32,000 bases of DNA from Rhizobium sp. BK251 (GCF_004345245.1 NZ_SLUQ01000012.1:35107-67106), one strand, 5' to 3'; positions 5,346-29,171 are shown, numbered from the stretch's first letter. Translations and numbers: made by a program. Notes: generated from the letters alone by a model not told the origin.

Positions 5346-5354
5346 AAACAGCCC

Positions 5355-5657: not shown

Positions 5658-5672
5658 GTTATCGCCCCTCGT

Positions 5673-8394: not shown

Positions 8395-8850
8395 TCAGGG
8401 CTGCGCCTTCACCGGCAGCCGGAAGGGAGCGCCGAGCCGGTTGAAGGCGTTCATGGCCGCGATGGTGATTGTGAGATCCACCAAATCTTTAGGCCCGAAA
8501 ACTGCCGAAACAGCAGCATAGGCTTCGTCGGATGCATGCGTCTCGCTGACAAGCGTCACCTCCTCGGCCCAGGCCAGCGCTGCGCAGTACACCTCTGAGA
8601 AAAGGTGCGGGACCTCTTCCCATACAGGAACCAAAGTAACTTTGTCGGCCGCCATGGTCTTCAGCAGATCGCGGGTGTGGAGGTCGATACAATGGGCGCA
8701 GCCGTTGATCTGCGATACGCGCAAGAACACCAGATGGATAAGTTCCTCAGGCAGGTTCGTGTTGTGCGTGACATAGTGATGGATGCCGAACAGGGCCTTG
8801 GCTCCAGCGGGTGCTACCTCGTACCAGTTGAGGCGCGTGGTCTCATTCAT
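8395..8850 (-). CDS. carboxymuconolactone decarboxylase (AhpD-like) family protein
   Basis: SQINGCAHCIDLHTRD CxxC core. I prefer the ATG at 8850 because AAGGAGA lies upstream; the ORF track starts at 8928. It is divergent from the ECF sigma gene. Confidence 0.8.
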   Translation of the reverse strand: MNETTRLNWYEVAPAGAKALFGIHHYVTHNTNLPEELIHLVFLRVSQINGCAHCIDLHTRDLLKTMAADKVTLVPVWEEVPHLFSEVYCAALAWAEEVTLVSETHASDEAYAAVSAVFGPKDLVDLTITIAAMNAFNRLGAPFRLPVKAQP

Positions 8851-9070
8851 GATGGTCTCCTTGAATTGGCGCCAACAGGCGGCGCTGCTCGGTTGACGAC
8901 GCGGCGATAGGAGGCGTGACATCTCCACCTGATTTTATTTTTTGCGGGCGCCATGTCACACTCGCGCGATCTGGCGCGTCCAGACGCGAGGCGGTCGGGT
9001 GCGGGAAAGTGGCATGGGGCAACACGGTGCGAACAAGACAGATAGGACTAACAAAGTCGGTGAGGCGGCG

Positions 9071-9958
9071 ATGGCCAATGAAGCGAGCTCTTGTACGTCG
9101 CTTGGAGATGAAAGAGTCATAGAATTCGCGCGAGAGAGTAAGCGCCTGCTGCGCCTAGGCCGACGGATGCTGGGATCGATCACTGAAGCGGAAGATGTGC
9201 TGCAGGATGCGTGGTTGCGCTGGGAACGCGTTGAAGACGAAGTCCGCACCCCGACCGCCTATCTCACGCGCATCGTCACCCGGTTATGCCTGGATCGGTT
9301 GAAGTCCGCGCGAGCGCGCCGCGAAATATACGTCGGCCCATGGTTGCCGGAGCCATTGGTCGAGCCGCTTGATACGCATGAAACCGTTGCTGACGATGTA
9401 ACTGTGACACTGATGTTGGCGTTGGAGCGACTTTCGCCGCTAGAACGGGCAGCCTTTCTGCTCCACGACGTGTTCGACCTAGCGCTGACCGAGGTTGCCG
9501 TCGTACTTGATCGTGAGCCGGCCGCCGTTCGGCAACTTGCTTCGCGCGCACGCAAGAATGTACAGAACGCACGATCACGGTACAGCGTGGGGCCGGAAGA
9601 GGCTGACGGAATTGCGCGTGCTTTTTTTGCTGCGTCGCGTGATGGCGATGTCACCGCACTTTCGACGTTGCTTGCGCGCGATGTCGAGATCCATAGCGAC
9701 GGCGGCGGCAAGGTGCTGGCATTCCGGGAAGTCATTCGCGGCCAGGAGCGCGCACTGCGACTGTTCGTTTCCGCTCAGCGGAAGGCAGCAACTACGCCGA
9801 CCTTGCTGCGAACCGCGATTATCGACGGCTTACCAGGATTTGTAAGCCTTGATCCCATCGGCGTTTTACAAACGACAGCTCTGGGCATTCGCGACGGAAA
9901 GATCTTCGCGATCTATATCGTCAAAAACCCGGATAAGCTGACGCATGTAAACGTTTAG
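9071..9958 (+). CDS. ECF sigma-70 factor, SigJ-like (C-terminal SnoaL-like extension)
   Basis: Region 2 is DVLQDAWLRWERV...YLTRIVTRLCLDRL. The hallmark YVGPWLPEPL linker is present. Region 4 is LSPLERAAFLLHDVFDLALTEVAVVL. A ~120 aa extra C-terminal domain follows. I prefer ATG 9071 (GAGG upstream). Confidence 0.8.
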   Translation: MANEASSCTSLGDERVIEFARESKRLLRLGRRMLGSITEAEDVLQDAWLRWERVEDEVRTPTAYLTRIVTRLCLDRLKSARARREIYVGPWLPEPLVEPLDTHETVADDVTVTLMLALERLSPLERAAFLLHDVFDLALTEVAVVLDREPAAVRQLASRARKNVQNARSRYSVGPEEADGIARAFFAASRDGDVTALSTLLARDVEIHSDGGGKVLAFREVIRGQERALRLFVSAQRKAATTPTLLRTAIIDGLPGFVSLDPIGVLQTTALGIRDGKIFAIYIVKNPDKLTHVNV

Positions 9959-10392: not shown

Positions 10393-10887
10393 TCAGAGCT
10401 GTGAGCGCCAGCCGGTCGTGAAATTCAAAGCCGTCAGCATCTCAAAGCTGTCGCACCAGCGCACTTCGAGATCGTTGCAAACATCCGGTATCCTGCGATT
10501 TGCCCGTTTTGTACTCGGTTTGGACGCCTCGACTGTCACGACGATACGGTCGGCGCGATGTGCAAATGCATGGGCAATCAGGAATGGGTCACGGCCAACC
10601 TCGATAATCTCGGCGTCGTTGAGGTCGGGCGCATACTTTTCGATAACGGTCTGAACGAGAGCCGGATCGACATCCTGATCCAGCTTAAGGGCGTCATAAT
10701 TGTCACCCTCATTCAACCATTGCGCCAGTTCCGAACCCTCGGTGATTTCCTCAAGGATTTCGACCGGAATTTTTAGCTCGCCGGTCTCGCCCATATGGAC
10801 AAGCCAGTCCCAGAATTCGGGAACGCGCTGAATCGGGTAGTAAAGATTATGCGCCGTAATAAGGACGTTCGCGTCGAGAAGATACAA
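10393..10887 (-). CDS. DUF4411-like PIN-fold protein (putative nuclease/toxin)
   Basis: The N-terminus MYLLDANVLITAHNLYYPIQRVPEFWDWL matches my recollection of DUF4411 (PIN-like acidic start). TTG start at 10887 with AAGGGGG 4 nt upstream. It starts 9 nt after the stop of the ImmA-like gene. Confidence 0.7.
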   Translation of the reverse strand: MYLLDANVLITAHNLYYPIQRVPEFWDWLVHMGETGELKIPVEILEEITEGSELAQWLNEGDNYDALKLDQDVDPALVQTVIEKYAPDLNDAEIIEVGRDPFLIAHAFAHRADRIVVTVEASKPSTKRANRRIPDVCNDLEVRWCDSFEMLTALNFTTGWRSQL

Positions 10888-10896
10888 ACCGCCCCC

Positions 10897-12090
10897 TTAA
10901 GCCACGCCGTCGGTCAGCGAGAAGACGTTATTCGGCTTCACGCCGAGGATCGCCGCCGCCTTGGAAGGCGACAGGGCTCCGTCTGCAAGCATCCGCTTCG
11001 AAAGACTCAGAAGGCGATTGCCGAGCCTGTGGCGACGAACGAGATAGTAGCTCGGCCCACCTTCGTTTTCACGCGCGCGTGCTCTTTGAGCTGCTTTGTT
11101 GTTGAGCCACTGCTTCCGGAAGACAGCCGTGACGGACGACCACATGGCTTGGTCGATGATCCCTTCGCGGTAGAGCTTGTAGGCGACCATCGAATGGCTG
11201 ACCTGTCGTGGCTCCGCGATTTCGGCAATACGCGCAATCACGACGTCCTGGCGCGCTCTGCGCAACGCAACCTCGCCGGCGATCTCGGCAGAAGGCAGCA
11301 GAATACGACCCGCCACATCATTGCAGAAGGTTTCAATAGTCGATGTCGGCCGGCCGCCGCTCACACCTGTCTGGCCGAGCCAGATATGGGCGAGTTCGTG
11401 CAGCAACGTGAACGACCATGCCTGCTCGCTGTCTTGGTCGTTGATCACAACGAACGGCGCGACTTTGTCGGAAAGCGCGAAACCTCTGAACAGCTCGACA
11501 TTGAGAGCGCTGTGGTGACTTCCCAGATTGCCGATCAACAGCACGAAAATCCCCGCGGCCTCTGCGTGTTCGCGCAGATAGGCAAACCCTTTGGACGTGC
11601 CTCGACCATTACCGGACCGGAAAGACTGGAGGCTGAGACCCAGGCGCTCGCTGATCGCCGTGGCCAAGCCTTCCGCTCCACGGCGAATATCATAAGAGGC
11701 CACGAAATCGAGTCGTTCGGCCTCTTCCTCGCTCTCGAGCAATGAGCGCACCATTTCCTGACGAGCGCGAACTTCGCGCAACAGCGTATCTACCAGCGCC
11801 ACATCGCGCCGCGCATATTCATCGGGAAGGGTCCTGAAATCTTCCCCACGCGCAGCGCGTGCCGGCGGTTCAGCAAGATAGAAGGTGAGCAGCGGGCGCC
11901 GGTATTGTGTCGACATCCTGATCAGCTGCGAACGGGTCGGCTCGAGCTGGCCGTCTTCAAGCATGGCAAGCCGATCGCTGCCCGCAATACCGCGTACATC
12001 GCCAATACCGAGCTTATCGGCAGCATCTTCTACACTGAGCCCCGCGGTCTCGCGCGCCCAACGCAGGATCAATGGGTTGACCTTTGGCAC
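10897..12090 (-). CDS. XRE-type HTH fused to an ImmA/IrrE (COG2856) zinc metallopeptidase
   Basis: N-terminal HTH (LRWARETAGLSVEDAADKLGI...RSQLIRMSTQYRRPLLTFYL). HEXXH motif in FTLLHELAHIWLGQ. GTG start at 12090 with GAGGTG upstream. Confidence 0.8.
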   Translation of the reverse strand: MPKVNPLILRWARETAGLSVEDAADKLGIGDVRGIAGSDRLAMLEDGQLEPTRSQLIRMSTQYRRPLLTFYLAEPPARAARGEDFRTLPDEYARRDVALVDTLLREVRARQEMVRSLLESEEEAERLDFVASYDIRRGAEGLATAISERLGLSLQSFRSGNGRGTSKGFAYLREHAEAAGIFVLLIGNLGSHHSALNVELFRGFALSDKVAPFVVINDQDSEQAWSFTLLHELAHIWLGQTGVSGGRPTSTIETFCNDVAGRILLPSAEIAGEVALRRARQDVVIARIAEIAEPRQVSHSMVAYKLYREGIIDQAMWSSVTAVFRKQWLNNKAAQRARARENEGGPSYYLVRRHRLGNRLLSLSKRMLADGALSPSKAAAILGVKPNNVFSLTDGVA

Positions 12091-12339: not shown

Positions 12340-13125
12340 CTAGGCGGCAGCTTGCGCTAATTCCCGTGCAAGTCCCACGATTTTCTCGGCGTTCAATTCC
12401 TTAGCGCATGCCCAGGCCGTCGCGGTAAACTCCGCCCTGTCCGCATAAAGCATTTCGATATCGTGGCAGACTTCCTTCAAGTGATCCACCGCATCCGTGT
12501 TGTTCTGGTGCCGTTGTTCCTCGATGATTTTTCGGAGCGCTTTTAGCTTCCGTTCGCACAAACGCCATTTATCACGGCGGCCTGCACACAATTTTTCCCC
12601 ATCGAGCTCAAAGACTTTAATGGTAGCCGCTACACGCTCCGTAGCGTCTCCGTCGGATGGAGTCGCACTTGTAGGTTCGCCGTTCGCGTTGAACGTCAGA
12701 AGATCAGGATCTCCCCACCGAGTCGGATCTAATAGAAGGGGCACCTCCGGCTCGATCGATGGATTGTCAGATGTCGCTTGTACGGAGCCCGCCTTGAGCG
12801 GAAAGCTATCTCGCTTGGCAATGTTCGGCACACCACCGGCCAGTCTCATGTTGCGCCATTCGAATGCTAGCCAAGGATACAGGCTTTTGGGCCTGAAGTG
12901 ATCCACTTGCCAGAACGACGCTTTGTCCTTTGCCTCCGTATACCAACACTTACCGTCGGAAAGCCCTTCAAGCGCAGGTTTGAGCGCAGTCCAAATGGCA
13001 GACCGTCCTGTTATGTATGCCGCGCGCTCGTCTTCCGGTTTTGCTGCGGCGTCCTCTGTGGCTTTCGTTGCTCGCTTGATCCATGCATCTTCCACGGCAG
13101 TCACAGGAAAGCTGATGTACTTCAC
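12340..13125 (-). CDS. HNH-like nuclease-family protein (TIGR02646 / Septu PtuB-like)
   Basis: Core KCWYTEAKDKASFWQVDHFRPKSLYPWLAFEWRNMRLAGGVPNIAKRD, then LLLDPTRWGDPDLLTFNANGE. This matches the remembered TIGR02646 layout (..DHfrPKs..W.N..., llnP...dP). GTG start overlaps the ATPase stop (GTGA, 13122-13125). Confidence 0.65.
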   Translation of the reverse strand: MKYISFPVTAVEDAWIKRATKATEDAAAKPEDERAAYITGRSAIWTALKPALEGLSDGKCWYTEAKDKASFWQVDHFRPKSLYPWLAFEWRNMRLAGGVPNIAKRDSFPLKAGSVQATSDNPSIEPEVPLLLDPTRWGDPDLLTFNANGEPTSATPSDGDATERVAATIKVFELDGEKLCAGRRDKWRLCERKLKALRKIIEEQRHQNNTDAVDHLKEVCHDIEMLYADRAEFTATAWACAKELNAEKIVGLARELAQAAA

Positions 13126-14690
13126 TTAAGACCCTCGACGATCTTCTGCATGAATTCATTCTGAGCATCAATTTCTTCTGGTGAAAAAGCGCGGTCGCGG
13201 CTTAGATTTTCCTTGTGAAGGGCGCGCAGATAACCGTCGTAATCCGGGTCGTTACTTTGATATGACAGCCCGAATTCATCTAACTCACGGTTCAATTTAA
13301 CTAGTTCTCGCTCTTGTTCCGGATCCCTAGTTTCCAAAGACAGCAACGTGTTCCGCTTCTCGACGGTCTGCTGTGTCGCGGGGTCGAGCGTGGTCGCCAT
13401 TCCGAAGATCTGGCGGAGGACTCCCGAAACACCAAGGCCTTTCGGATCCACAACTGGTTGGCTCGCCTTCACCTGCCCTTCGCTGTTCCGATAAAGGACT
13501 TGAACCTGGGTCTTTTCTAATCCGGCAATCGTGAGAGGGTCATGGCTGGTTAAGACAACGTGGCAATTCTCGTTGCGCCCGGCAACTTGTTTGATGAATG
13601 TGAGGTAGTTCCATTTCCATGCCGGGTTCAGGTGGGTGTCGGGCTCATCTAACAGAAACAAGGATTCATTATGCGCCGCAAAGCGCATCATCCCAAGAAC
13701 GCTCAATAGCTGCTTTTCTCCGTCGCTAATCTCATGAAACGGAATGGGACCATCAGCACCTTCGCGTTCGACCCAGATTCGTATCTCTCGAATCAAATCC
13801 GAGAGATCCAGCGTCTCTAAATAGGCGAAGAACGCTTGCTCATTGCCGAACGGTTCCGCAAGCCTTCTGAGGGTGGGTTCGTCTCGTAGGAAGATGAATA
13901 TCTGTTCTTCGTTTATGCCCTTCCGTCGGTAATCTTCTCGCACGCTCGACTTAGTTCGAATTGGAACCAGCGCGTGTTCCCATAAGCCGCTCAACAGCTT
14001 CCGGACAATTCCACGGGCATACCAGAATCTTGGATCAGACTTTTTAAGAATCTCGCTGGAGGGTTTTCGTTTGCCCCAATCCGTTTGCCTGAGCGTAAGC
14101 AAGGCCGAGTCAAATTTTCCTACACCAAGGTTTTTTTTCAAAAATTGCTGGGCACCCGTATCAGGAAACGCGAAATACGTGAGGAGCGCTAAAGCTCCAT
14201 AGCGCTCTCGGACGTAGAACAGTCTGCGTAGCTCAGATGTTCTGGGGTCGAGTTCTTCGTCCGCTCCAGGTTCGATGGCGGCATCATAATAGCGCTTCTG
14301 GGGCGGGTCGAAAATCTTACGGAAGCGATCTGATTCACCCGAATAATACCCAAAAACATGATTGGGCAGGAGACCAGCATCGCGCCTTTTAACCATGGCG
14401 AGAGTGCTTGGCTGGCCATCCACTGATACCGAAACGGTATCTGGGGCACTATAGCGGTAATCAATCGAAACTGTCCGACTTTTGCACTGATATTCAATCG
14501 CGTAAGGGAATTCTGTTTCTCTACGTGGATCGTCTAGGTCGCGGAATATTGTAGCGAGAGCCTCCAGAACGTTGGACTTTCCAGTGCCATTCTGTCCAAT
14601 GATGACCGTCTCCAAGCGTGACGTGTCAAAATCAATCGAGATGTCAGCTAGATTCTTAAAGCCTCGAACGGATAGACGATCAATGCGCAA
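13122..14690 (-). CDS. ABC/SMC-type AAA ATPase (Septu PtuA-like; 'restriction-system-associated ATPase' type)
   Basis: Walker A GQNGTGKSN, signature-like ISDGEKQLLSVL, Walker B LFLLDEPDTHL, H-loop LTSHDP. I prefer the TTG at 14690 (MRIDRLSVRGFKNL...) with AAGGAG 7 nt upstream. It overlaps the hsdS stop by 11 nt. The ORF-track start at 14846 would lie deep inside hsdS. Confidence 0.8.
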   Translation of the reverse strand: MRIDRLSVRGFKNLADISIDFDTSRLETVIIGQNGTGKSNVLEALATIFRDLDDPRRETEFPYAIEYQCKSRTVSIDYRYSAPDTVSVSVDGQPSTLAMVKRRDAGLLPNHVFGYYSGESDRFRKIFDPPQKRYYDAAIEPGADEELDPRTSELRRLFYVRERYGALALLTYFAFPDTGAQQFLKKNLGVGKFDSALLTLRQTDWGKRKPSSEILKKSDPRFWYARGIVRKLLSGLWEHALVPIRTKSSVREDYRRKGINEEQIFIFLRDEPTLRRLAEPFGNEQAFFAYLETLDLSDLIREIRIWVEREGADGPIPFHEISDGEKQLLSVLGMMRFAAHNESLFLLDEPDTHLNPAWKWNYLTFIKQVAGRNENCHVVLTSHDPLTIAGLEKTQVQVLYRNSEGQVKASQPVVDPKGLGVSGVLRQIFGMATTLDPATQQTVEKRNTLLSLETRDPEQERELVKLNRELDEFGLSYQSNDPDYDGYLRALHKENLSRDRAFSPEEIDAQNEFMQKIVEGLK

Positions 14691-16389
14691 CGAGGTGCTC
14701 CTTGTCCCCCGATTCACGGACGCGCCCAGCGGCGATCTCGTCGCGCAATAATCGATAGAACTCTTCAATAGGAAGCCCGCTTTGTTGCCACAGAGCGTCC
14801 GCGCGCATCTTTCCGCCCGACGAGACAATGGCTGCAACGAGGCCAAGCCCCGATACGATATTCTGCGTACTCCCCATGTTATCCAAGCTTCTAACGTTGC
14901 TTTGGTCGCGGACTTTAGGCATTGATTTCAGCGCCTTTGCTTGCATACTTCTATCATCGGCGATTTGAGCAAGAAGCTCCGAAGCGCTCCCTTTCGAGGA
15001 CGTTGTTCGAAATCCTCCTGCCATAGCGTGAGCGACAGCCCTAGAAACCAAATCGTCTGCTACGCGCGCTGCGCGATCGGCTTCAGTGGCCAGTACATCT
15101 GCGTGATGTAACAGCCGCCGGATTCGAGCTACTATCTCATGCTGCTCTTCGATTGGGGGGAGAGCAATATGGAACGCTCTTAGCTCTGGAAAATAGATAG
15201 TTGTGTGCGTGGTCCCCCGCCCAAATCGCAGCAAAGCTTTCCCCTCAGCCATAAGCGCGTACATTAGAAATTCAGGAAGAAGCGCGGGCGAACAAGTCCA
15301 TGTCGCAAAATCCTGACTTGTAGCCATAGGCTGCCCGAGGATCGTTACATAACCGACGGATGCTGTCCGAGAAAGACAGACAGTTTGCGCTGGTAAGATC
15401 CGAGCGGAGGACGCCTCCAATCCCGCCGCTGTAATCGTTTGAGCAGTCCGATCTATCACTGCTCCATGGTGTTTCCGCGCATCTCTAATGCCGAGCCAAT
15501 TGATCCCACCGCCCCAGTATTCACTGTGTTGCCGGCTGGGCGTGTGCCCTGTTTCCTGCCGCGCGAGCCTCAATAGCGAAATCCACGCCCATCCTCTCGG
15601 AAGCTCCGAGCCAGGATTATTTACCGCGATTGCGGCTACTCCAGCGATCGTTTTATCAGTGGCCTTGCGCCCACCTCGAGATGGTTCCGGCTCTGCGACT
15701 CGACGCACCAGTTCCTGAGCTGACTCGATTGAACGGCTATTAGCTCGCCAGCGTGACGAGAGCTCCCCGGTTACGCCGGCTCGCAACGCGCTCATCCTAA
15801 GCGCTTGCGACGCTTTGTACGCGCTGATCGCCTCCGCCTTCGCCGAGCGCGCCCGGCCGACCAGTGCATCTAAGCGTATAGCCAACTCTCTTTGCTCATG
15901 CTCTGGCGGCAACGGTAATTGCGCGCTACGCAACGCTGACAGGGTGATGCGAATACGTCCCACACCCTTACCATTGTCGCTGAAATAGCGTCGCAATGCA
16001 GGGCTATTGAGCCAATGCATGATCAAACTGGCGCTTACGCGATCGTGCAATCGTGACCGAAAGCAGTCAGCCTTCACTATAGCTGGACCAATTCCGTCAG
16101 GTACCTGACATGTTCTTCCCAGCGGATCGCCAAGTGCCGCCGTAATCAGATCTCCGGCACGCGCTTCATGACGTCTCAGCGACTCAAATCGCCGCAAGTC
16201 GATAAAGGCTTTATTGTCATCGACAAAAGCTCCCGCACCGATGTTGTTCAATCGAATAACCCGGCATCCGCTCTCCGTGTAGTCTGAAGATTTTAGGGCG
16301 CTACCGAATGGGCCGTCCGCTATCGAATTCGGATCTGGCGCAAGCAGATCCTGGAACTTGCAGGTCGTCCAGTTCTTGGGCAAGTTCAT
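14680..16389 (-). CDS. hsdS: type I restriction-modification specificity subunit HsdS with a ~110 aa C-terminal extension
   Basis: Two target-recognition halves are each followed by conserved helices (LPLPPEHEQRELAIRLDAL... and IALPPIEEQHEIVARIRRLL...). ATGA overlap with hsdM. At 569 aa it is longer than typical HsdS. Confidence 0.85.
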   Translation of the reverse strand: MNLPKNWTTCKFQDLLAPDPNSIADGPFGSALKSSDYTESGCRVIRLNNIGAGAFVDDNKAFIDLRRFESLRRHEARAGDLITAALGDPLGRTCQVPDGIGPAIVKADCFRSRLHDRVSASLIMHWLNSPALRRYFSDNGKGVGRIRITLSALRSAQLPLPPEHEQRELAIRLDALVGRARSAKAEAISAYKASQALRMSALRAGVTGELSSRWRANSRSIESAQELVRRVAEPEPSRGGRKATDKTIAGVAAIAVNNPGSELPRGWAWISLLRLARQETGHTPSRQHSEYWGGGINWLGIRDARKHHGAVIDRTAQTITAAGLEASSARILPAQTVCLSRTASVGYVTILGQPMATSQDFATWTCSPALLPEFLMYALMAEGKALLRFGRGTTHTTIYFPELRAFHIALPPIEEQHEIVARIRRLLHHADVLATEADRAARVADDLVSRAVAHAMAGGFRTTSSKGSASELLAQIADDRSMQAKALKSMPKVRDQSNVRSLDNMGSTQNIVSGLGLVAAIVSSGGKMRADALWQQSGLPIEEFYRLLRDEIAAGRVRESGDKEHLVAH

Positions 16390-17843
16390 GATACGAGGCC
16401 CGCAGGGTCGTCAGAATTAAGTTCATCTATTAGAGATCGGATTTCAGTCAAAGCAGTAAGAAGATGCCGCTCGACAACTGCGGCAACGTCGTCGGGCGCA
16501 GCGAACTCTAATTCCTCTTCGAATTCATCTTCCTCATTAAGCCATGTAATATACAAATCGTCATCTCGTTCGGCGATGGCTTCGCGCGTAAATCTACGAA
16601 ACCTGCCGTTGAACTCAGTCTCCGAGCGCGGAGCGTGCCCCCTCGGATCGCTGCCGTAAGCGATGACGAATTGGGCAAGTCCATCAGCGAAAGAATTGCC
16701 GCCTTGCTCCGAGGCGCTTGGCGCGCGCAGATCAAAAATCCAGGTGCCGTCCGTGGCTTCAGCTTCCGTGGGTTCTGCTGGGCGGTTAAAGAACAAGACA
16801 TTGGTTCTTACCCCCTGAGCATAGAAAATACCCGTCGGAAGGCGCAGGATCGTATGGAGATCGAAGTCTCGCATGAGGGTCCGGCGAAGAAGCTGTCCCC
16901 TCCCTCCTTCAAAGAGAACGTTATCTGGCACAATAACTGCCGCGCGCCCACCGGGAGCCAACGCTCTCATACAATGCTCAACGAAAGGAAGCTGAAAGGT
17001 CGTGGACTTGGCGGTTATCAAAAGGTCCACTCGGGACGAAACTCCTCCAGAAGGACCGAACGGTGGGTTCGAAAGGATTACATCCGCATTGCTCAGCGCG
17101 GGATCTGACCCGAGAGACGAAAGAGTATCGCCCACGAAGATGTAGTCCGACTCGATACCGTGCAAATACAGGTTCATGCAAAGCAATCGAAACGTATCGA
17201 TGACATTTTCGACGCCTCGTAAAGCGCTTTTAGTCTGAAAATGCCGCTCGCCGTCGGATAACTCCCCCTCCATTTTCTTAATCGCGCGATCGGCAGCTAT
17301 AAGGAAGCCGCCGGTCCCGGCGGCCGGGTCCTGTATTACTTCGCCAGGTTGGGGACGCAGAACGTCTACAATAGCATCAACTAGCGGCCGAGGCGTAAAA
17401 TACTGACCCGCCCCTCGCTTGGTCTCCTCAGCGTTCTTCTGAAGAAGCCCCTCGTAAGCGTCACCGAATGTATCTCGTTTATCAGAGTCCCACCCCTCTT
17501 CGTCGATAGCCTCCACGAGCCGCCTGAGTGTGCTTGGCTCCCGGACGACTGTTTTCGCCTCTGTGAAGATAACCTGCATCACTCGGCTCTGCGCCGATGT
17601 GGCCAACAACGACAGCACCTCACGATATCGATCGAGAAGCATTTGATCCGGTGTTGCGATCAAGTCACTCCAGCTACATCCTGTCGGCATACGAACCATG
17701 CCATCGCCGCGTTCGGAAGCGAGCTTCAGAAAGATGAGATATGTGAGTTCCGTCACATACTGCGGATAGGTCACCCCATCTTTGCGCAGGAGACTGCAAA
17801 GGCGCCAAAGCTTCGTCACCATTGCGGAAGATGAATTAGACAA
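16386..17843 (-). CDS. hsdM: type I restriction-modification N6-adenine DNA methyltransferase HsdM
   Basis: N-terminal HsdM helix bundle (LWRLCSLLRKDGVTYPQYVTELTYLIFLKL). AdoMet motif I is DPAAGTGGFL and catalytic motif IV is LSNPPFG. TTG start at 17843 with AGGA 8 nt upstream; ATG 17822 is an alternative. Confidence 0.9.
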   Translation of the reverse strand: MSNSSSAMVTKLWRLCSLLRKDGVTYPQYVTELTYLIFLKLASERGDGMVRMPTGCSWSDLIATPDQMLLDRYREVLSLLATSAQSRVMQVIFTEAKTVVREPSTLRRLVEAIDEEGWDSDKRDTFGDAYEGLLQKNAEETKRGAGQYFTPRPLVDAIVDVLRPQPGEVIQDPAAGTGGFLIAADRAIKKMEGELSDGERHFQTKSALRGVENVIDTFRLLCMNLYLHGIESDYIFVGDTLSSLGSDPALSNADVILSNPPFGPSGGVSSRVDLLITAKSTTFQLPFVEHCMRALAPGGRAAVIVPDNVLFEGGRGQLLRRTLMRDFDLHTILRLPTGIFYAQGVRTNVLFFNRPAEPTEAEATDGTWIFDLRAPSASEQGGNSFADGLAQFVIAYGSDPRGHAPRSETEFNGRFRRFTREAIAERDDDLYITWLNEEDEFEEELEFAAPDDVAAVVERHLLTALTEIRSLIDELNSDDPAGLVS

Positions 17844-17939
17844 AAGCGAAGTCCTGTTATGTATTAGCTGTAATAGGGCAGAAAGAGACCCCGGAAGCCG
17901 GCCGGCAAAATCCCGAGCCCGCAGATCCGAACGCGCGAT

Positions 17940-18281
17940 CTATTTCTTTCTTAGATCGAGCGAAATTGTCGCCTGCGAGACGCCGAGCATATTCCCGATT
18001 TCAGCTTGGGACATACCGTCGGCATAGAGCTGCTTCGTCAGGTTCCTCCGCTCTTTGATGCTTAATGTCGCAGGATCGAACGACGTGAGCTGTTGGAAGC
18101 TACCCTTTGCCTTCAACTTAGCCGAGTGAACGGCGCCGTTCGGCTTTTTGATGTGAACTGAGAGTATGTTCGATGATCCGGTAATCTTGAACGTGTCTCG
18201 AGGCCCAATCTTCAACCCGGTCAGAACCGCTTCAATAGAAGCTGCCGGCTTTTGTGGAAAAGTTGCTAGCAGTTTCGCCAT
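17940..18281 (-). CDS. small HTH protein heading the hsdMS operon (possible controller)
   Basis: The C-terminal MSQAEIGNMLGVSQATISLDLRK is a sigma-region-4 / Hin-like helix-turn-helix. The N-terminal ~75 aa is unrecognised. ATG 18281 is preceded by GGGGG; ATG 18293 is the alternative. It lies 96 nt upstream of hsdM. Confidence 0.6.
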   Translation of the reverse strand: MAKLLATFPQKPAASIEAVLTGLKIGPRDTFKITGSSNILSVHIKKPNGAVHSAKLKAKGSFQQLTSFDPATLSIKERRNLTKQLYADGMSQAEIGNMLGVSQATISLDLRKK

Positions 18282-18300
18282 TCCAACCCCCATTCCTGTG

Positions 18301-18340
18301 TTAATAAAATCTTATTAATCCCGCAGGATCGTGACGTCAA
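18301..18340 (-). promoter_or_regulatory. sigma70-like promoter (TTGACG-17-TAATAA) overlapping an AT-rich palindrome TTAATAA-aatc-TTATTAA
   Basis: The minus strand reads TTGACG (18340-18335), a 17-nt spacer, then TAATAA (18317-18312). The inverted repeat at 18301-18318 covers the -10 and the predicted transcription start. It lies ~20-30 nt upstream of the HTH gene start. Confidence 0.4.
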
Positions 18341-18705: not shown

Positions 18706-19863
18706 TCAAATCACGCCCCAAGCCCGAAACCTCCCCCTGCCCGTCATCTCGCGCAGGCCAAGCTCCAAAACGATCCGCCGCGCCGCCTGCGGCGTTACGT
18801 CCAGCGTTTTGGCCACCATCCCGGCCGACACCAACGGCTTTGCCATGACCAGTTCGACCAGTTCCGGCAATTTTGACGACGTCCGCCGCCCCTCCAGCTT
18901 TCGCTCGAACATTTTTCGCGCCAGCACCAGCCGGTCATGTTCTTTCATGCCGATCTCGGCGGCCGCGATGAGACCTTGTGCAATGGCCAGCAGTCGTGTT
19001 TCACGATCGCGATGCCGGCGCCGATCGACCGGAATAGTTTTGAGGCCGAGATTGACAGCGGCGAGATGAGCGCCGGTGGTGATGCCGGCTTCCCGCAGGA
19101 TCGAGGCGGCAAACAGCCGCCCGAGCCAGGGCGCGTGCTGAAGCACAGATAGTTCGTTCCAGGCATCGAGGGCGACGATGGCCTGCAGTATCGCCGGCAG
19201 GGTTTCGACCTCGCGCAAGAAGGCGCGCCATTCGTCGAGCCGCACATCTTCGTCCCAATCGAGATCGTAGATCATCGGATCCTTTTCGGGACGGCTGGCC
19301 GTCGCGTGGCCGCCGCCGCGGCCGGGCCGTGTGGCGTGCTCGATCGCGGCCGACGACCGCGCCAGCGTCGCATCGATGGCCGCGAGGTCGACGCCGGGCA
19401 GATTTTCAACGTCATCCACTTCCTCCCCCTCTCCTTCCGCATCGATCGGGGCCGCGCGCCGAATGACGCCGGCTGTCTCCGCCTCACCCGCGCTGACCGG
19501 CGTGATTTCCGATGTCTGTCGGAGCGCCCGGACACCGTCGGCCGACAGTGCCCAATCCGGCGACTGCCCGGAAATGCGCCGGCGGGTTCGCAAAACGTCG
19601 CGCGCGATGGTGAGCTCGTGGGTGGGCGTGCGAATGTCGCGGGTGGCGTCATGGAGGACGAGGTCTTCGAGATGGACGAGCTCGCCGTCGATCCACAGCG
19701 AGGCGCAGGCATCGGCGAAGTGTTGGCGTTCGAGGAAGCCGGCGTCGACGGTCGAGCGGGCGATGCGCTCATCCAGACGGGTGAGCGCGACACCGGCGTC
19801 GAAAGCCGGCCGCATCAGGGCTGTCATGCTGATTTTTGAAACATCGTAAGCCATTGATATCAT
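18706..19863 (-). CDS. DUF1612 / RHE_PE00001-like protein with a C-terminal HTH (rhizobial plasmid backbone gene)
   Basis: N-terminus ...[22 protein letters not shown]...[31 protein letters not shown]-terminal [45 protein letters not shown]. Family name is recalled from rhizobial plasmid annotations. Confidence 0.6.
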
Positions 19864-19939
19864 GGTAAACGATTTCCTAAAGGAACTCTATATGAATATT
19901 TTGGTTCGCCACATGGTATGATTGCCGGACGGGGTTATA

Positions 19940-19968
19940 ACCATCGATAACCACCGTTTATCGATGGT
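19940..19968. other. dif/cer-like candidate recombination core: ACCATCGATAA-ccaccgt-TTATCGATGGT
   Basis: Perfect 11-bp inverted arms with a 7-bp spacer, in the divergent intergenic region just upstream of the recombinase operon. The arm ends ...ATAA / TTAT... match the inner ends of E. coli dif arms. Confidence 0.4.
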
Positions 19969-19971
19969 AGA

Positions 19972-20319
19972 TTGACAGAGGCCGCGAATCCACCGAATCT
20001 GGGCCAAATCCCGCTCCGCAAAGGCCTTTCCATGGAGGATCGCGTCCGGTTCGCTCTCGAAAAGCTCCTCAACGTCGCGCACGGCGACACCGGGCAGAGC
20101 CGGCGCGTCGGCAATTTCCTGCTCGCATGGTGGAATGCCGGCGTGCATGGCGGCTTCGACCTGACTGACCTGGCCGATCTCGATCGCGAAATCTGCGAGG
20201 ACATCATCACCATCTTCACCTTCATTGCCCGCGAGGAGACGTTGTCCTATCCCAATGCCTACAAGCCGGAGATTATTCAGATCATCCGCCGCTGGCGACC
20301 GCATGTCGAGATCGACTGA
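19972..20319 (+). CDS. hypothetical protein translationally coupled to the recombinase
   Basis: 115-aa ORF whose TGA shares one base with the recombinase ATG (TGATG at 20317-20321). Start is uncertain: TTG 19972 or ATG 20032. Confidence 0.5.
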   Translation: MTEAANPPNLGQIPLRKGLSMEDRVRFALEKLLNVAHGDTGQSRRVGNFLLAWWNAGVHGGFDLTDLADLDREICEDIITIFTFIAREETLSYPNAYKPEIIQIIRRWRPHVEID

Positions 20320-21473
20320 TGGCGGCCCCGAAGAAATTGGCTACCCAGTCCGCCGTTGAGCGCCGCGCCGAAGAACTCGATACCATCGCCTCTGTCCTGC
20401 CGATGGATCGCCGCGACGAGCTCGCCGAACTGCTCACCGACCAGGATGTCGAGACGCTACGCCATCTCGTCAACCAGGGCATGGGCGACAACACCCTGCG
20501 GGCCCTGACGTCTGATCTGGCTTATCTGGAGGCTTGGTGCTTGGCCGCAACCGGACGCTCCCTGCCCTGGCCGGCGCCCGAGGCGCTGCTGTTGAAATTC
20601 GTCGCCCATCACCTTTGGGACCCGCAACACCGCGAGACCGATGCGGATCACGGCATGCCGGCCGACGTCGACGAAAAGCTTCGGCACCAGGGGTTTCTAA
20701 AATCGGTCGGACCGCACGCGCCGGCAACGGTGCGCCGGCGGCTGGCGAACTGGTCGACGCTGACGAAATGGCGCGGCCTGAGTGGCGCTTTCACCTCCCC
20801 TGCCCTGAAATCAGCCATTCGGCTGGCAATCCGAGCCGCGCCAAGACAACGTCTTCGCAAGAGCGCTAAGGCGGTCACATCAGACGTCCTGGCCACACTG
20901 CTGGCCACCTGCGCGACCGACAGTCTCCGCGATCTGCGGGACCGGGCGATCCTGATGGTCGCCTTTGCCTCCGGTGGCCGGCGGCGGAGCGAAATCTCGG
21001 GGTTGCGCCGTGAACAACTAACCGTCGAGCCGCCGATCCCGCTCGAGAATGGCGCCCCCCTCCCCTCTCTCGCCATCCATCTCGGTCGCACCAAAACCAC
21101 CTCCGGCGAACAGGACGATGTCGTCTATCTGACCGGTCGGCCGGTCGAGGCGCTCAATGCCTGGATGGCGGCGGCCAAAATCGAGAACGGGAGCGTGTTT
21201 CGCGGGATCGGGCGTTGGGGAACCGTGTCGCGGCGGGCGCTCGATCCGCAGTCGGTCAATGCGATTATCAAGCAGCGGGTGGAAATGGCCGGGATGGAGG
21301 CTGGGCAGTTTTCCGCACATGGGCTTCGTTCTGGCTACCTCACCGAGGCGGCTAACCGCGGCATTCCCCTTCCCGAAGCCATGGAACAGTCGCGGCATCG
21401 CTCTGTGCAGCAGGCCTCGAGCTACTACAACAGTGCAGCCCGGCGCAGCGGACGCGCGGCAAGGCTTCTTTAG
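20319..21473 (+). CDS. tyrosine site-specific recombinase (integrase/resolvase type)
   Basis: Catalytic signature: ...FASGGRRRSEISGLR (Arg I), HGLRSGYLTEAANRG (H-x-x-R), SRHRSVQQASSYY (His / Tyr nucleophile). Confidence 0.85.
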   Translation: MAAPKKLATQSAVERRAEELDTIASVLPMDRRDELAELLTDQDVETLRHLVNQGMGDNTLRALTSDLAYLEAWCLAATGRSLPWPAPEALLLKFVAHHLWDPQHRETDADHGMPADVDEKLRHQGFLKSVGPHAPATVRRRLANWSTLTKWRGLSGAFTSPALKSAIRLAIRAAPRQRLRKSAKAVTSDVLATLLATCATDSLRDLRDRAILMVAFASGGRRRSEISGLRREQLTVEPPIPLENGAPLPSLAIHLGRTKTTSGEQDDVVYLTGRPVEALNAWMAAAKIENGSVFRGIGRWGTVSRRALDPQSVNAIIKQRVEMAGMEAGQFSAHGLRSGYLTEAANRGIPLPEAMEQSRHRSVQQASSYYNSAARRSGRAARLL

Positions 21474-22377: not shown

Positions 22378-25300
22378 TCACGTGCTTGCCAGCTCTTGCG
22401 CTACTTCTCGGAAATATTCTGGCGACGCCTCTAGTAGCGCTGCGACTATCCCAAGATTGTCTCTGCAAGCTACCTTTGCGCCATAACGATCGTTCACATT
22501 TGGAAACGCTTCGGCCAGTAATTGCGCGATCACTCGGTCCGCAAAGCCCGCCTCGTAGAAAGCAAGCGCGGATTCTGTCTGAAGTCCATTTTTCACCTGG
22601 CGTTGAAGTAACGTCGTGGCGTCGACCAAGTCTGGCTCAATCGTTTCGAGCAGGTCCACGACGGAGGCCAAAATCATTGCAACATGGTAACCAAAGCCAT
22701 CCTCACATATGGCGACGAGGTGATCGGCGGTGGCATGATCGCCACTCACACGGATATCATCCTTCACAAGGATCTGCCGTATTTCGGCGAAGGATTTTCC
22801 GTCGGTCCATGCCGATAGTATGGTGGGGATGACTGCGGCATCACTCAACGCCGACAGCGATTTTGCTGAAGCCAGCGGGAGCGCTTGCTCTATCAAAAGC
22901 GGCAGCAGGGTTCCGCCTTTAACGGCGACAGTCAGCTGCTCGGTGCTCATCTCGACCCACGCGCTGAGCTTGCGAAGTGCGGCTGGCGCCAGTGGGGACT
23001 TCTTGATCAGCAAGCGGTAAGCGGCGTCGGTATTGTTTTGGATCGATTTGACCGTCGCTTGAAAGAGCGCAATCACGCGAGGTTGTGTTGTTTCATCAGC
23101 GAGATGATAGCCCAGAGTGTTTGCGGCCAATCGTTCGGCGGCTTCAACGGCATCTTCCGCTTCGAAGTCGATATGTTGAGCGAGGTACATTGCTATGCTT
23201 TGAATCGCCCTCGCCCTCCCCTGTAGATAATCCTTGAGCTCGGAGGCGCTCACATTTGGGAACTGCTTGAGGACTTCCACTACAATCAACTCAATCGCAG
23301 CCTCATCTGCGAACGCTAAATTCTCATCAGCGAGGTCGAAGGTAAGGACGATCGGAGTGCCAGCGGTCTGCTTATAGTCGTCGAAAATTTGGAGGATACT
23401 ACTCTGGCTGGGTTCAGCACCGTCCTGATCTAAAAGCTTTTTCGCAGCCTCCCATCGCCAGTTCTTATATTCGTCTTCTCGCTCATCGTAGATCGGAGGC
23501 GCAGAGAATATGACACTGCTTTCCGTATGCATGCCAGCACGACCTGCTCGACCCATGAGGTTGTGAAAGTCACGGACTTTGATTTTCTCTTTGCCTTGTT
23601 GGGTGGCAGTCACCACCAAGTATTTGATCGGAAAATTCACGCCCTGGGCCAGCGTCGATGTACAGGCGACGATCCGCGCGTGTCCTGCCTTCATCGCATG
23701 TTCGACACAAAGGCGAATGCCGTGTGGCGTGCTTGCGTGATGAGAAAGAACCCCCAATCGACTTGCGCGGACCACGTCGGCGTCATCACCGAGATTGCTG
23801 GCGATTAGGTTAGCAAGGCGGTCTAGCTCTTGTTGATCACACCATGCACTCGGTTTCGCCAATTCGACCTTTCGCGTAAACAGATCAACTACGCGCCAGG
23901 AGACCTTTGATACGCTGGCCTTTTGGCCGCAGAACAATGCCACACTCCCGTTGCTGCCGAGGTGGAGCGCGAGGTACAACCCAATGTCAACACTCTCGGA
24001 GATTTCCGCGGAGTGATTACGATCCGGAAAGACACGATCCCGTTCCCGTTTACTCTTCTTTTCAAGCGGAAGTTCTTCAATAATTCGGGGAACGAAGTAT
24101 TCGTCTTCGTCAGGGTCCAACGGGTTCACATACCGAAGCCATCCTCGCTCCTTCTGCCAGCTTGCGAAAGCAATGCTCTTCGCAGTCGGCAGAAGGCCCT
24201 TTCCGCTAACAATCGCAGAAGCGTCTCCAATCAACCAATCCGCAATCTGCTCCGCATTGCCAATGACCGCGGAAATTAAAACGATTTGCGCAGCAGGCTT
24301 TAGCATCATTCGAAGCGACGAGAGGAGAAGCTCGTAGGTAGGCCCGCGCGTGAAACCCTCGAACTGATGACCCTCGTCGTAAACAATCAGTCCGATTCTG
24401 TCAGCCAACTCAGGGGCTCGACGCAGCATGTAGAGCAGCTTCTCCGGTGTGATGACCAGAACGCAATTTTGGACGAGAAGCTGCTCAATTCCAAAGTCCA
24501 TCAAATAGGAATCCGAAACTTCGCCCAGGAGTATATTCTCGCCCTGAAAGGCTCTCACTAGATCAGAGCGAATATCGTGGCAGAGCGACTTGAATGGCGC
24601 GACGATGATCGCGAGGGAAGCCCGTCCAGAAAGGAACGCTGCTCTGATAATAAGTTCTGTAGCTCGCGTTTTCCCGGCACTTGTTGGCATCTGGATAACG
24701 GCAGAGCGCCCATTTAACAGATCGGCATCACAGATACGCCGTTGTGCCGGCCAGAGTTCTATCGGGAAGGCCGGCTTCGCAAGCGCCGGTGACCAGGCAG
24801 CCAGGGGCAATCCTGAAGCTGGTGGAAGCCTGTTGCGCGACGAGTTCTGGATTTTACCCGCGCATATTGCCGTGACGATGTCGGCGTAAAGGACCTCACG
24901 GTCGGTTCCGATTTCATACAGCGTTACGCGAAGCTCACGGCAAAGCGCCGGAATCGCGCGTTCATTCTCGTCCTGCAGCGCATAATGCGCACGGAGCAAC
25001 TCGAGCAGACGATTTGCAAATGTCGAGTGAAAGATTTCTACCTCAATCGACTGCAGTCGATTCTGCAGGATCCTGCTCGCGAGAAGTGCTAGTCCGCCTC
25101 CAAGGTCAGCGGGAGGCTCATCTGAACGCTTCACCACCACCACAGCGTTTCCGATTGCGTCAGAAAGATAATAAGCTGCCGCACATAGCAGCGAAAATTC
25201 GACCGAGATGCTGCCGTCTAGCTTTGCCTCGAGATAAGAGTCGAAGAAGGTTGCGGCAAACCGAACGTTCTCATGGATTGATGTATCTTCCGCCCAGGTA

Positions 25301-25506
25301 GGAGGATGGGCGCTCGACCCCGGTTCGACAAAATGATCGGAGATGGCGCCCGCAGCATCTCCAAGGATTCCGACCGCCAGAGAATAGAGCGAGGCTGGAT
25401 CGCGCCGCAGCTCGATGAAGTCCTCCGCAGCGACACGGAATTCGTGCATTTTTGCCGTTGCTCGAACGGTCGAGAGGACTTGTCGTGCAGCTGCATCAGG
25501 CTTCAT
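22378..25506 (-). CDS. hamB: Hachiman HamB-like SF2 DExH helicase (1042 aa)
   Basis: Motif I is QMPTSAGKT, motif II is VYDEGHQF, motif VI is LMGRAGRAG. The ~250 aa N-terminal and ~350 aa C-terminal regions are unrecognised. The ATG overlaps the stop of the upstream DUF1837-like gene by 11 nt. Confidence 0.8.
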   Translation of the reverse strand: MKPDAAARQVLSTVRATAKMHEFRVAAEDFIELRRDPASLYSLAVGILGDAAGAISDHFVEPGSSAHPPTWAEDTSIHENVRFAATFFDSYLEAKLDGSISVEFSLLCAAAYYLSDAIGNAVVVVKRSDEPPADLGGGLALLASRILQNRLQSIEVEIFHSTFANRLLELLRAHYALQDENERAIPALCRELRVTLYEIGTDREVLYADIVTAICAGKIQNSSRNRLPPASGLPLAAWSPALAKPAFPIELWPAQRRICDADLLNGRSAVIQMPTSAGKTRATELIIRAAFLSGRASLAIIVAPFKSLCHDIRSDLVRAFQGENILLGEVSDSYLMDFGIEQLLVQNCVLVITPEKLLYMLRRAPELADRIGLIVYDEGHQFEGFTRGPTYELLLSSLRMMLKPAAQIVLISAVIGNAEQIADWLIGDASAIVSGKGLLPTAKSIAFASWQKERGWLRYVNPLDPDEDEYFVPRIIEELPLEKKSKRERDRVFPDRNHSAEISESVDIGLYLALHLGSNGSVALFCGQKASVSKVSWRVVDLFTRKVELAKPSAWCDQQELDRLANLIASNLGDDADVVRASRLGVLSHHASTPHGIRLCVEHAMKAGHARIVACTSTLAQGVNFPIKYLVVTATQQGKEKIKVRDFHNLMGRAGRAGMHTESSVIFSAPPIYDEREDEYKNWRWEAAKKLLDQDGAEPSQSSILQIFDDYKQTAGTPIVLTFDLADENLAFADEAAIELIVVEVLKQFPNVSASELKDYLQGRARAIQSIAMYLAQHIDFEAEDAVEAAERLAANTLGYHLADETTQPRVIALFQATVKSIQNNTDAAYRLLIKKSPLAPAALRKLSAWVEMSTEQLTVAVKGGTLLPLLIEQALPLASAKSLSALSDAAVIPTILSAWTDGKSFAEIRQILVKDDIRVSGDHATADHLVAICEDGFGYHVAMILASVVDLLETIEPDLVDATTLLQRQVKNGLQTESALAFYEAGFADRVIAQLLAEAFPNVNDRYGAKVACRDNLGIVAALLEASPEYFREVAQELAST

Positions 25507-26353
25507 CGGCCGCCCTTTCGTAAAGCGCGTGCACGAGATCCATCATCGAAATGCCCTTGATCACGACGAGTTTCAGGTTGTCCTTGTTGGGGTGGTCTGA
25601 AACTTGCGTCTTTTCCAGTTCCATTTTTGCTGCGGTTTCTGTATCGAGGACCGCGACCGCCCCACTCCATCGCGTGAAAGGTCGATCGGCCTCGTTCTGA
25701 AACCTCTCAACTTTGAGGGCCGATTCCCGGTTCTTGCGAAGCAGCCTCTTTTTCAGGGCGCTGAGCGTCATTGCCTCTCGTAGACGATCTTTTGCAGAAT
25801 CGTTGACGGCCGTTTGAAGTCGATTCTCCGTGGACGGACGTAGGCCGGATTTAGACTCTACGACAAAAAGCTCGTCCTTCGGGCTCGGCTTTTCACCTGC
25901 AAAGCGAAAGCCGACCACGTCCGTGCCGTTATCCGAGACGTTAGCGTTGATGCGATCCTCGTAGCGGTGCTCACGAGGGCACCAGTATCCGAGAATGAAC
26001 TCGATGTAGTCAGCAACAAGAATTTCTCCAAAGTCACCGGATCGCGTAGCTGGCCCTGACCCGACCTTGGCGCTCGGAAACTTGATCTCGGTGAGGAACT
26101 CGGCATTCGATTTTCCTGTTCCTGAAACAAGATCAGCAAGCTCCTCATCGAGGCAGTAATGCTGCCGGAAATGCTTCGCCCAGGCTGACAGAACAGCGGG
26201 ATCCTCCTCATGGTTGAGCTCCCAGACCTCCACCATTGCACCGTCTGCGGTTTTAAGCACTTCGTCAGTTTTGTGGAGCCATTTTATATGTGTCGGCGTC
26301 ATGAAGGACTGCTTATTTGTGTTTGTCGGAGGATGGCCCGATTCTCTCACCAT
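25496..26353 (-). CDS. hamA: Hachiman HamA-like protein (DUF1837, PD-(D/E)xK-like)
   Basis: The size, the position immediately 5' of the helicase, and a nuclease-like D...E.K pattern (DNGTDVVGFRF...LFVVESKSG) fit HamA. Start is ambiguous: ATG 26353, TTG 26359 or ATG 26302. Confidence 0.7.
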   Translation of the reverse strand: MVRESGHPPTNTNKQSFMTPTHIKWLHKTDEVLKTADGAMVEVWELNHEEDPAVLSAWAKHFRQHYCLDEELADLVSGTGKSNAEFLTEIKFPSAKVGSGPATRSGDFGEILVADYIEFILGYWCPREHRYEDRINANVSDNGTDVVGFRFAGEKPSPKDELFVVESKSGLRPSTENRLQTAVNDSAKDRLREAMTLSALKKRLLRKNRESALKVERFQNEADRPFTRWSGAVAVLDTETAAKMELEKTQVSDHPNKDNLKLVVIKGISMMDLVHALYERAADEA

Positions 26354-26522
26354 TCGCAAACTTCTTTACAACCATACCGTAACTAGAACATTGATTTCAT
26401 TTCGACCTCTAGTTTCTCACTAATTAAACTGCTCGACGAAACCACGGGTTCGCGTCCTGAGTTCCGACATACTGGCTTTTCCCACTGCGGAGATGGCTCT
26501 AGAGATGTTTTCAAACAATCCT

Positions 26523-26552: not shown

Positions 26553-26931
26553 GCACCGCCGGTCAGCGACTCCGAAGGGGTCGCCTATAGTGTCAGTTGA
26601 TCCCGTAACTTTGTAACGCCCCCCATTGGGGCTTGAAGCCGCAAATCAACACGGAGGAAAGACAGCGGCGAAACAGCAGGTGATCCTGATCACAATATTT
26701 TTGACGAGATTGGTGACGACACAGCTCGCGGCGGATAAACGAGATTTCGCCTTGTTTTGTGGAGTTTTTGGGCCTCAGACCGGCTTTGTAGGAAGATGAA
26801 AACGCAAGGCTGTTAACCTCTCATTAACCAAAAAACGCTTGCCCACGAAACAGAATCGGAGCCTATTGCCATCGGCGGAAATCTTTCGATTTCTCGCTTC
26901 AAACCGCCACTGGCAAGAAACAGGTTACGAG

Positions 26932-29168: not shown

Positions 29169-29171
29169 CGC

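Follow-up and report, generated by a model that had tools for sequence, protein, structure and literature searches.

A 32,000-nt stretch of Rhizobium sp. BK251 (GCF_004345245.1, NZ_SLUQ01000012.1:35107-67106), referred to below as the window, carries on its minus strand an operon that joins the methyltransferase (hsdM) and specificity (hsdS) genes of a type I restriction-modification (R-M) system to genes for a PtuA-like ABC ATPase and a PtuB-like HNH nuclease. The original prediction, made from the sequence of the window, described five co-directional genes (helix-turn-helix (HTH), hsdM, hsdS, ATPase and HNH), the last four being chained by overlaps. All five open reading frames (ORFs) are present on the minus strand, and the coordinates of the overlaps were borne out base by base. 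The features of the operon are given below, with their supporting evidence in brackets.

17940..18293, minus strand: small HTH protein gene, 117 aa (Pfam HTH_38 at 1.9e-6)
16386..17843, minus strand: hsdM, type I N6-adenine DNA methyltransferase of the EcoKI family (Pfam, PADLOC and PDB matches)
14680..16389, minus strand: hsdS, specificity subunit, 569 aa, with two target recognition domains (TRDs) and a C-terminal extension (Methylase_S, two matches)
14683..14859, minus strand: C-terminal winged-helix tail of HsdS, about residues 511-569, proposed adaptor to PtuA/PtuAB (tail profile, AlphaFold2, Foldseek)
13122..14690, minus strand: PtuA-like ABC ATPase, 522 aa, TTG start (PADLOC PDLC00293)
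12340..13125, minus strand: PtuB-like HNH nuclease, 261 aa (PADLOC PDLC00343)
16386..16389, minus strand: hsdM/hsdS overlap, ATGA (base-by-base reading)
14680..14703, minus strand: hsdS/ptuA junction, with AAGGAG at 14698-14703, TTG at 14688-14690 and the hsdS stop TGA at 14680-14682
13122..13125, minus strand: ptuA/ptuB overlap, GTGA (base-by-base reading)

The overlap between the end of hsdS and the TTG start of the ATPase gene is 11 nt long, and the AAGGAG motif lies 7 nt upstream of this TTG. The longest mechanical ORF of the ATPase reaches position 14846; the PADLOC PtuA model aligns only from residue 54 of that ORF, and the position aligned to the TTG is an ATG in 77 of 83 homologues. 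The start was placed at the TTG rather than at 14846 because homology begins there. The start of hsdM is ambiguous (TTG at 17843 or ATG at 17822). A scan of the operon for promoters and terminators gave nothing above shuffled sequences. The G+C content of the operon region (51-55%) is below that of its flanks (58-64%), as expected for acquired DNA. No homologue of the HTH gene adjoins the operon at any of 84 related loci; its product is likely to be a local regulator that does not belong to the conserved system.

The HsdM protein matched Pfam N6_Mtase at 2e-60 together with HsdM_N, the PADLOC MTase_I model at 1e-163 and, in a comparison with the PDB, the HsdM of EcoKI (2ar0) with 383 bits; its DPAAGTGGF and NPPF motifs are intact. 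The HsdS protein contains two Methylase_S stretches, and both of its halves match solved HsdS chains. The PADLOC Specificity_I model spans residues 3-463 only, and the 569-aa protein exceeds the solved HsdS chains of the PDB (398-464 aa) by about 100 aa. Among the type I features tested, an HsdM with NPPF and a two-TRD HsdS are thus present, and no HsdR is encoded alongside them in the 32-kb window. Two HsdM and one HsdS would be expected to form an active, sequence-specific methyltransferase (M2S).

The ATPase matched the PADLOC PtuA model PDLC00293 at 2.3e-173 over its full length (2-520 of 527), and the HNH protein matched the PtuB1 model PDLC00343 at 4.3e-60, also over its full length, in agreement with the identities first proposed for the pair. 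The ATPase also matched Pfam AAA_21, AAA_15 and SMC_N, and its top matches in the PDB were PtuA chains from Septu and from retrons. In an alignment of 14 PtuA sequences, no variation was seen in Walker A (GQNGTGKS), the signature (SDGEKQLL), Walker B (LLDEPD) or the H-loop. The HNH protein had no Pfam match and matched the retron PtuB chains of the PDB at 1e-8. Its H76, N92, N101 and K104 are invariant in 82 homologues, and among its residues that align with the cysteines of retron PtuB, only C60 is a cysteine.

The ATPase scored 74 bits with the NCBIfam PtuA equivalog (cut-off 500) and is not an orthologue of the retron-type PtuA, while the HNH protein scored 48 bits with NCBIfam PtuB (NF041761, cut-off 150) and 45.1 bits with TIGR02646 (cut-off 52.15). 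Because the curated NCBIfam cut-offs were not reached, the pair was regarded as a distinct clade within the PtuA/PtuB superfamily. Membership of the ATPase in TIGR04435 was ruled out (144.2 bits against a curated cut-off of 300). The cassette also gave weak PADLOC matches to mad2, mad3 and mad5; membership in MADS was ruled out on scores of 86.9 bits against 720 for MAD2 and 26.2 against 420 for MAD3, the other mad genes not having been searched for.

This PtuA clade was collected from 85 sources, namely the window, four plasmid loci and 80 loci of species-representative genomes. PtuA identity across the collected loci is 35-72%, and every ORF of these loci was searched with the window proteins and an HsdR seed. 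The clade occurs in Proteobacteria, Bacteroidota, Firmicutes, Planctomycetota, Chloroflexota, Verrucomicrobiota and two archaea. PtuB lies downstream of PtuA in 84 of the 85 sources, the exception being a truncated locus, and HsdS lies directly upstream of PtuA in about 78. The hsdM gene was found in 76-78 sources and the complete set of HsdM, HsdS, PtuA and PtuB (M, S, A and B in the gene orders below, with R for HsdR) in 76; in the remaining nine, a contig end interrupts the locus or the S ORF was not recognised. Members of the clade without hsdS were seen only at contig ends. Two gene orders exist, M-S-A-B and S-A-B-M, and S-A-B is contiguous in both. Among the relatives, hsdS and ptuA overlap by 1-26 nt in 65 of 77, and ptuA and ptuB overlap by 4 nt in 65 of 82. 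Distant PtuA-like pairs (at most 30% identity), encoded on Rhizobium etli and Bacillus plasmids, stand alone, with no hsdMS. The linkage to hsdM and hsdS is a property of this PtuA clade, neither sporadic nor general to Septu.

Throughout the set, HsdS ends in a conserved stretch of 60-70 residues, whereas the TRDs vary freely. The stretch has the motif L..G....LW..S..ID.FY..L..E...G.[IV].E, in which FY is invariant. A profile of this tail matched 81 sources, always at the C-terminus of HsdS (or of an HsdS fragment) upstream of PtuA, and matched nothing elsewhere in the loci of those sources, no HsdS of the PDB and neither of two checked HsdS linked to the sister TIGR04435 ATPases; divergent tails from Vibrio and Pseudoalteromonas also score under the profile threshold. 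The tail is kept with or without HsdR in the locus. An AlphaFold2 model from a shallow alignment gave an H-S-H-H-S-S topology with a predicted local distance difference test score of 83-85 over the domain, and every Foldseek match of the model was a winged helix of the IclR, MarR or cullin-WHB type, with weak E-values (0.015-0.05). We infer that the tail may act as an adaptor between M2S and PtuA or PtuAB. The S-A-B chain in the 85 sources and the clade-specific tail indicate that the ATPase/HNH pair is tied to hsdMS and not sporadically nested there, as had been suspected. There is good reason to think that PtuAB is functionally, and probably physically, coupled to M2S, which argues against an independent Septu nested in the operon.

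Some copies of the cassette are degraded. In L018 the HsdS tail is present as a separate 76-aa ORF (6924-7154), L040 has a fragmented HsdR and HsdS and a truncated PtuB, and L039 and L059 have a split PtuA; the parts of the cassette seem to decay together at these loci. A different kind of variation was seen in the Bacteroidota loci L049, L054, L057, L067-L069 and L073, where PtuA is 66-85% identical but PtuB exists as sharply distinct types, with identities clustered at about 32-36%, 49-67% and 87-91%. The PtuB type co-varies with the last ~90 residues of PtuA, which points to a joint exchange of the PtuA C-terminus and PtuB as a single module and to contact between the two.

In the window, which covers 12-13 kb on either side of the operon, no HsdR was found. 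HamB (22378-25506), the sole superfamily 2 (SF2) helicase present, was ruled out as an HsdR, being part of a full-length Hachiman pair. Among the 76 complete sets, HsdR lies immediately upstream in 43 and is absent from 33. The 43 comprise 38 loci of the order R-M-S-A-B, one R-M-S-A-B locus with a weak second HsdR-like match downstream and four of the order R-S-A-B-M. For 22 of the 33 HsdR-less sets, at least 3 kb of flank was available on both sides (3-9 kb covered) and contained no HsdR-like ORF. Hidden HsdR genes were sought in the HsdR-less loci with phmmer (Pseudoalteromonas HsdR), with a hidden Markov model (HMM) of 41 HsdR and with Pfam on 20 large flanking ORFs. Only unrelated proteins were recovered (TonB receptors, TraG, aconitase, SecDF and others), apart from a truncated HsdR at a contig edge (L071) and a convergent DinG-like helicase (L082). 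Eight IMG/VR contigs showed the same mix of HsdR-present and HsdR-less states.

In a neighbour-joining tree of PtuA, the window falls within an HsdR-less clade with L005-L009. Its subclade, consisting of the window, L005 of Allosphingosinicella, L088 of Mesorhizobium and L093 of Pseudomonas, is HsdR-less, as are the relatives at 72-75% identity (Mesorhizobium, Pseudomonas sp. DD1 and Allosphingosinicella); the contig of an 89% relative ends within hsdM and is uninformative on HsdR. At about 50% identity, relatives from Rhizobium leguminosarum and from a metagenome bin have the order R-M-S-A-B. A Bacteroidota clade is HsdR-less in 13 of 14 members, several of which lie beside TraG of conjugative elements, and the S-A-B-M group is mostly HsdR-less. 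A search of 65.7 kb (94%) of a 70-kb conjugative Vibrio vulnificus plasmid with an M-S-A-B cassette found no hsdR. We conclude that losses (or gains) of HsdR have occurred repeatedly and that the four-gene cassette is maintained and spreads in its absence.

Because 43 of the 76 relatives keep an adjacent HsdR, PtuAB was regarded as an add-on to type I M/S and not as a general replacement of HsdR. The original prediction had placed PtuAB in the HsdR position and proposed a composite system in which it replaces HsdR as effector. In that form the replacement was not supported, and the HsdR-carrying relatives include some at about 50% identity; the functional tie between PtuAB and hsdMS and the absence of HsdR from the window, where HamB is the only helicase, were supported. 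For the HsdR-less lineages, that of the window included, M2S may yet supply recognition with PtuAB as effector, but a guard logic like that of PrrC fits at least equally well.

The NPPF motif is retained in all 78 HsdM of the relatives, including 35 of 35 from HsdR-less loci, and TRD turnover is equal with and without HsdR. In the HsdR-less Bacteroidota clade, identity is 77-92% for HsdM, 57-90% for the HsdS tail and 66-85% for PtuA, against 29-60% for the TRD region. The corresponding values in an HsdR-containing betaproteobacterial clade are mostly 80-91% for HsdM (about 55% in pairs with L023), 70-96% for the tail, 67-94% for PtuA and 30-65% for the TRD region.

The interpretation that we tentatively favour, with a probability of about 0.4 and largely by analogy, is that hsdM-hsdS-ptuA-ptuB is a type I methyltransferase-coupled Septu cassette in which M2S guards PtuAB. 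PtuA and PtuB would be translated from the same message directly behind the tailed HsdS, and the tail would dock the PtuA/PtuB ATPase-nuclease complex onto M2S, which would serve as its sensor and regulator. M2S, together with HsdR where present, would hold PtuAB silent. Interference of a phage with the methyltransferase complex, for which the agent could be a DNA-mimic or peptide anti-restriction protein, would then free the HNH nuclease and the infection would be aborted. HsdR would be an optional module, lost in the lineage of the window.

This interpretation is preferred because of its precedents, namely retron PtuAB, PrrC, PARIS and the OLD-ABC+HNH dyads. In retron-Eco7, the reverse transcriptase (RT) and multicopy single-stranded DNA (msDNA) are the antitoxin that neutralises PtuAB (PMC12640716); PrrC and PARIS have been described as guardians of R-M that fire when it is inhibited (PMC12707154), and OLD-ABC+HNH dyads near BREX or R-M have been read as backup modules (PMC12839542). 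The origin or present location of the module beside complete R-M-S systems was also counted in favour of a guard. The conserved linkage, the clade-specific tail, the intact catalytic motifs and the occurrence of HsdR-less cassettes in whole subclades and on mobile elements speak for a coupled cassette. Moreover, for cassettes on conjugative plasmids or integrative and conjugative elements (ICEs) that enter unmethylated hosts, a guard would be easy to carry and a restriction enzyme risky. Several points weigh on the other side. The conservation of NPPF in the HsdR-less HsdM, though a pure guard needs no methylation, and the diversification of TRDs in HsdR-less as in HsdR-containing lineages both fit restriction better. 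The HsdS tail could bind DNA instead of PtuAB, and an unlinked hsdR in the host genome is possible for every locus.

The strongest competitor, which we consider doubtful, is a restriction activity independent of HsdR. M2S would recruit or activate PtuAB at unmethylated sites to cut foreign DNA, with methylation marking self, and PtuAB would be the sole restriction nuclease in HsdR-less cassettes and a second one where HsdR is present. For the HsdR-less cassettes in particular, it is conceivable, though on balance unlikely, that M2S directs PtuA/PtuB to unmethylated DNA through the HsdS tail, HsdR having been exchanged for a Septu effector. Such an activity would explain why all 35 HsdR-less HsdM keep the S-adenosylmethionine (SAM) motif as well as NPPF and why TRD swapping and diversification in HsdR-less clades match those in HsdR-containing ones. 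It also fits the intactness of the four genes in at least 22 HsdR-less loci with clean flanks, and the dedicated tail and translational coupling apply to it equally; conceptual precedents exist in the methylation-marked, HsdR-free BREX, MADS and Hma. However, HsdR stands beside the cassette in 43 of 76 loci, so PtuAB did not arise as its replacement. In the cases considered (retron PtuAB, PrrC and PARIS), partner-linked ABC-ATPase/nuclease modules act as released toxins and not as site-directed nucleases, and no restriction-alleviation device is known for unmethylated hosts, though many of the cassettes are on plasmids or ICEs.

It is rather improbable that the operon is part of an ordinary type I R-M system with hsdR at an unlinked site, on the replicon, on the chromosome or in another EcoKI-family system, with PtuAB as an accessory; such an arrangement would be compatible with a guarding role of M2S. 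Subunits within one type I family can complement one another, and an unlinked hsdR does occur, for example in Staphylococcus aureus. The HsdM of the window is of the EcoKI family, HsdR adjoins the cassette in relatives at about 50% identity, and an HsdR acting from elsewhere would account for both the conservation of NPPF and the turnover of TRDs. Against it, no hsdR was found in the 12-13 kb that flank the operon on each side in the window, in the 3-9 kb around the cassette at 22 loci or in 65.7 of the 70 kb of the V. vulnificus plasmid, and the HsdR-less state is common to whole subclades across genera.

Least probable is an independent Septu that hitch-hikes behind an orphan M+S, having a transcript in common with it and no functional interaction: defence genes are often embedded in type I R-M loci and able to work alone, as TgvAB is, the guilt-by-embedding survey found many cassettes embedded in type I R-M, BREX and DISARM loci, and PADLOC assigns both proteins to plain Septu HMMs, but the linkage is near-universal over 85 sources and two gene orders, the tail is found only with this PtuA clade, hsdS and ptuA overlap in 65 of 77 loci, and only contig ends yield members without hsdS.

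The cassette resembles several known systems in part. Like Septu type I (PtuA/PtuB), reportedly described by Doron in 2018, it has an ABC ATPase with intact Walker A, Walker B and signature, followed by an overlapping HNH gene, possibly of the TIGR02646 type. Canonical Septu, however, is an autonomous two-gene system, whereas the clade of the window is chained to hsdS and hsdM and its pair scores under the curated NCBIfam PtuA and PtuB cut-offs. In retron type I-A, also called Septu type II (Ec78, Eco7), PtuAB is likewise a modular effector with a separate sensing module just upstream; the partner there is the RT and msDNA, while here it is M2S with a winged-helix tail.

Another parallel is PrrC of EcoprrI, an anticodon nuclease of a type IC R-M locus. 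This effector, too, has an ABC-ATPase module, and its gene neighbours hsdS. PrrC is kept latent by the R-M complex, fires on its inhibition and is found almost exclusively in type I loci. Unlike the ATPase and HNH protein, which are encoded by two genes, it is a single polypeptide with the anticodon-nuclease domain at its C-terminus, and it lies between hsdS and hsdR or hsdM; neither an HsdS tail nor HsdR-less forms are described for it in the literature examined. The PrrC nuclease is of the HEPN type, and neither a PrrC nor a HEPN family was among the listed profile matches of the ATPase and HNH proteins.

The TIGR04435 'restriction system-associated AAA family ATPase', so named by NCBI and found with an HNH-like partner (PADLOC PDC-M01/M62), is a sister ABC-ATPase family. 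Its members share PDLC00293 as best PADLOC model and sit right after hsdS in R-M-...-S-A-X operons, but have different partner proteins, and the two linked HsdS that were checked had no match to the tail profile. With classical type I R-M of the EcoKI family, the operon shares HsdM, a two-TRD HsdS and overlapping genes; it differs in the absence of HsdR from the window, in the ~100 aa longer HsdS with its winged-helix tail and in the two extra coupled genes. BREX, MADS and Hma also combine a methyltransferase with an ATPase or other effectors instead of a classical restriction subunit, although in Hma these are a 5-methylcytosine methyltransferase, a helicase and an ATPase. That type I loci can harbour embedded defence genes is well known from PrrC, TgvAB, DarTG2 and the 'guilt by embedding' survey. 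Our literature search revealed no account of an obligate hsdS-ptuA-ptuB unit, a tailed HsdS or recurrent HsdR-less M-S-A-B cassettes.

Outside the operon, the window carries the following features.

8395..9958: gene for a sigma factor of the extracytoplasmic function (ECF) type and gene of the carboxymuconolactone-decarboxylase (CMD) family, near the cassette
10393..12090, minus strand: HTH + M78/ImmA-IrrE peptidase gene and, directly downstream of it, a DUF4411 (PIN-like) gene; the two come just after ptuB
18706..21473, between the operon and Hachiman: RHE_PE00001-family gene (DUF1612 + HTH_13, NCBIfam 1e-158) and a divergent tyrosine integrase gene
22378..25506, minus strand: HamB helicase of Hachiman (PADLOC E=0)
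25496..26359, minus strand: HamA of Hachiman (PADLOC 8e-106), overlapping HamB
26839..30538, plus strand: repA (ParA-like), repB and repC cassette
30797..31876, minus strand: AbiEii nucleotidyltransferase toxin (PADLOC 1.5e-119)

A complete Hachiman system, encoded on the strand of the operon, is thus found 4 kb upstream of it. From its gene content, which includes a repABC cassette, the window was regarded as part of a rhizobial-type alphaproteobacterial repABC plasmid and as a defence island. The RHE_PE00001-family gene and the integrase may be the recombination module that brought the cassette in. The DUF4411 and M78-HTH genes, which gave weak PADLOC matches to RmrA and CapP, probably form a defence or toxin-antitoxin pair; on the Pseudoalteromonas plasmid L004, the cassette is likewise followed by an ImmA/IrrE gene. 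The ECF sigma factor/CMD pair is likewise found near the cassette on the Roseomonas plasmid L001 (21360-22759), which may be a coincidence.

Other genes were seen beside related cassettes. In L005 of Allosphingosinicella, the HsdR-less cassette is preceded by two overlapping ORFs of 981 and 529 aa (1300-5831, plus strand); Pfam and PADLOC gave no match for either, and they may form an uncharacterised defence pair. In L088, a 1643-aa protein with NERD, protein kinase and superfamily 1 helicase domains (1007-5938, minus strand) is encoded divergently from the Mesorhizobium M-S-A-B cassette and is probably another defence gene product. In L004, the R-Abi-M-S-A-B operon runs on into a 'restriction endonuclease' gene (12443-13486, plus strand; PADLOC candidate PDC-S02, 8e-155).

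The cassette would add a third deployment of the Septu PtuAB effector, which would then act alone, behind a retron and behind a type I methyltransferase. Pipelines that call 'Septu plus orphan or incomplete type I R-M' at such loci would be splitting one conserved system in two. The C-terminal winged helix of HsdS is a candidate adaptor that makes the coupling of M2S to PtuAB directly testable. If M2S guides PtuAB, type I specificity modules could drive a nuclease other than HsdR. If M2S guards PtuAB, the cassette would be a widespread anti-restriction sensor, comparable to PrrC and PARIS, carried on plasmids and ICEs in many phyla.

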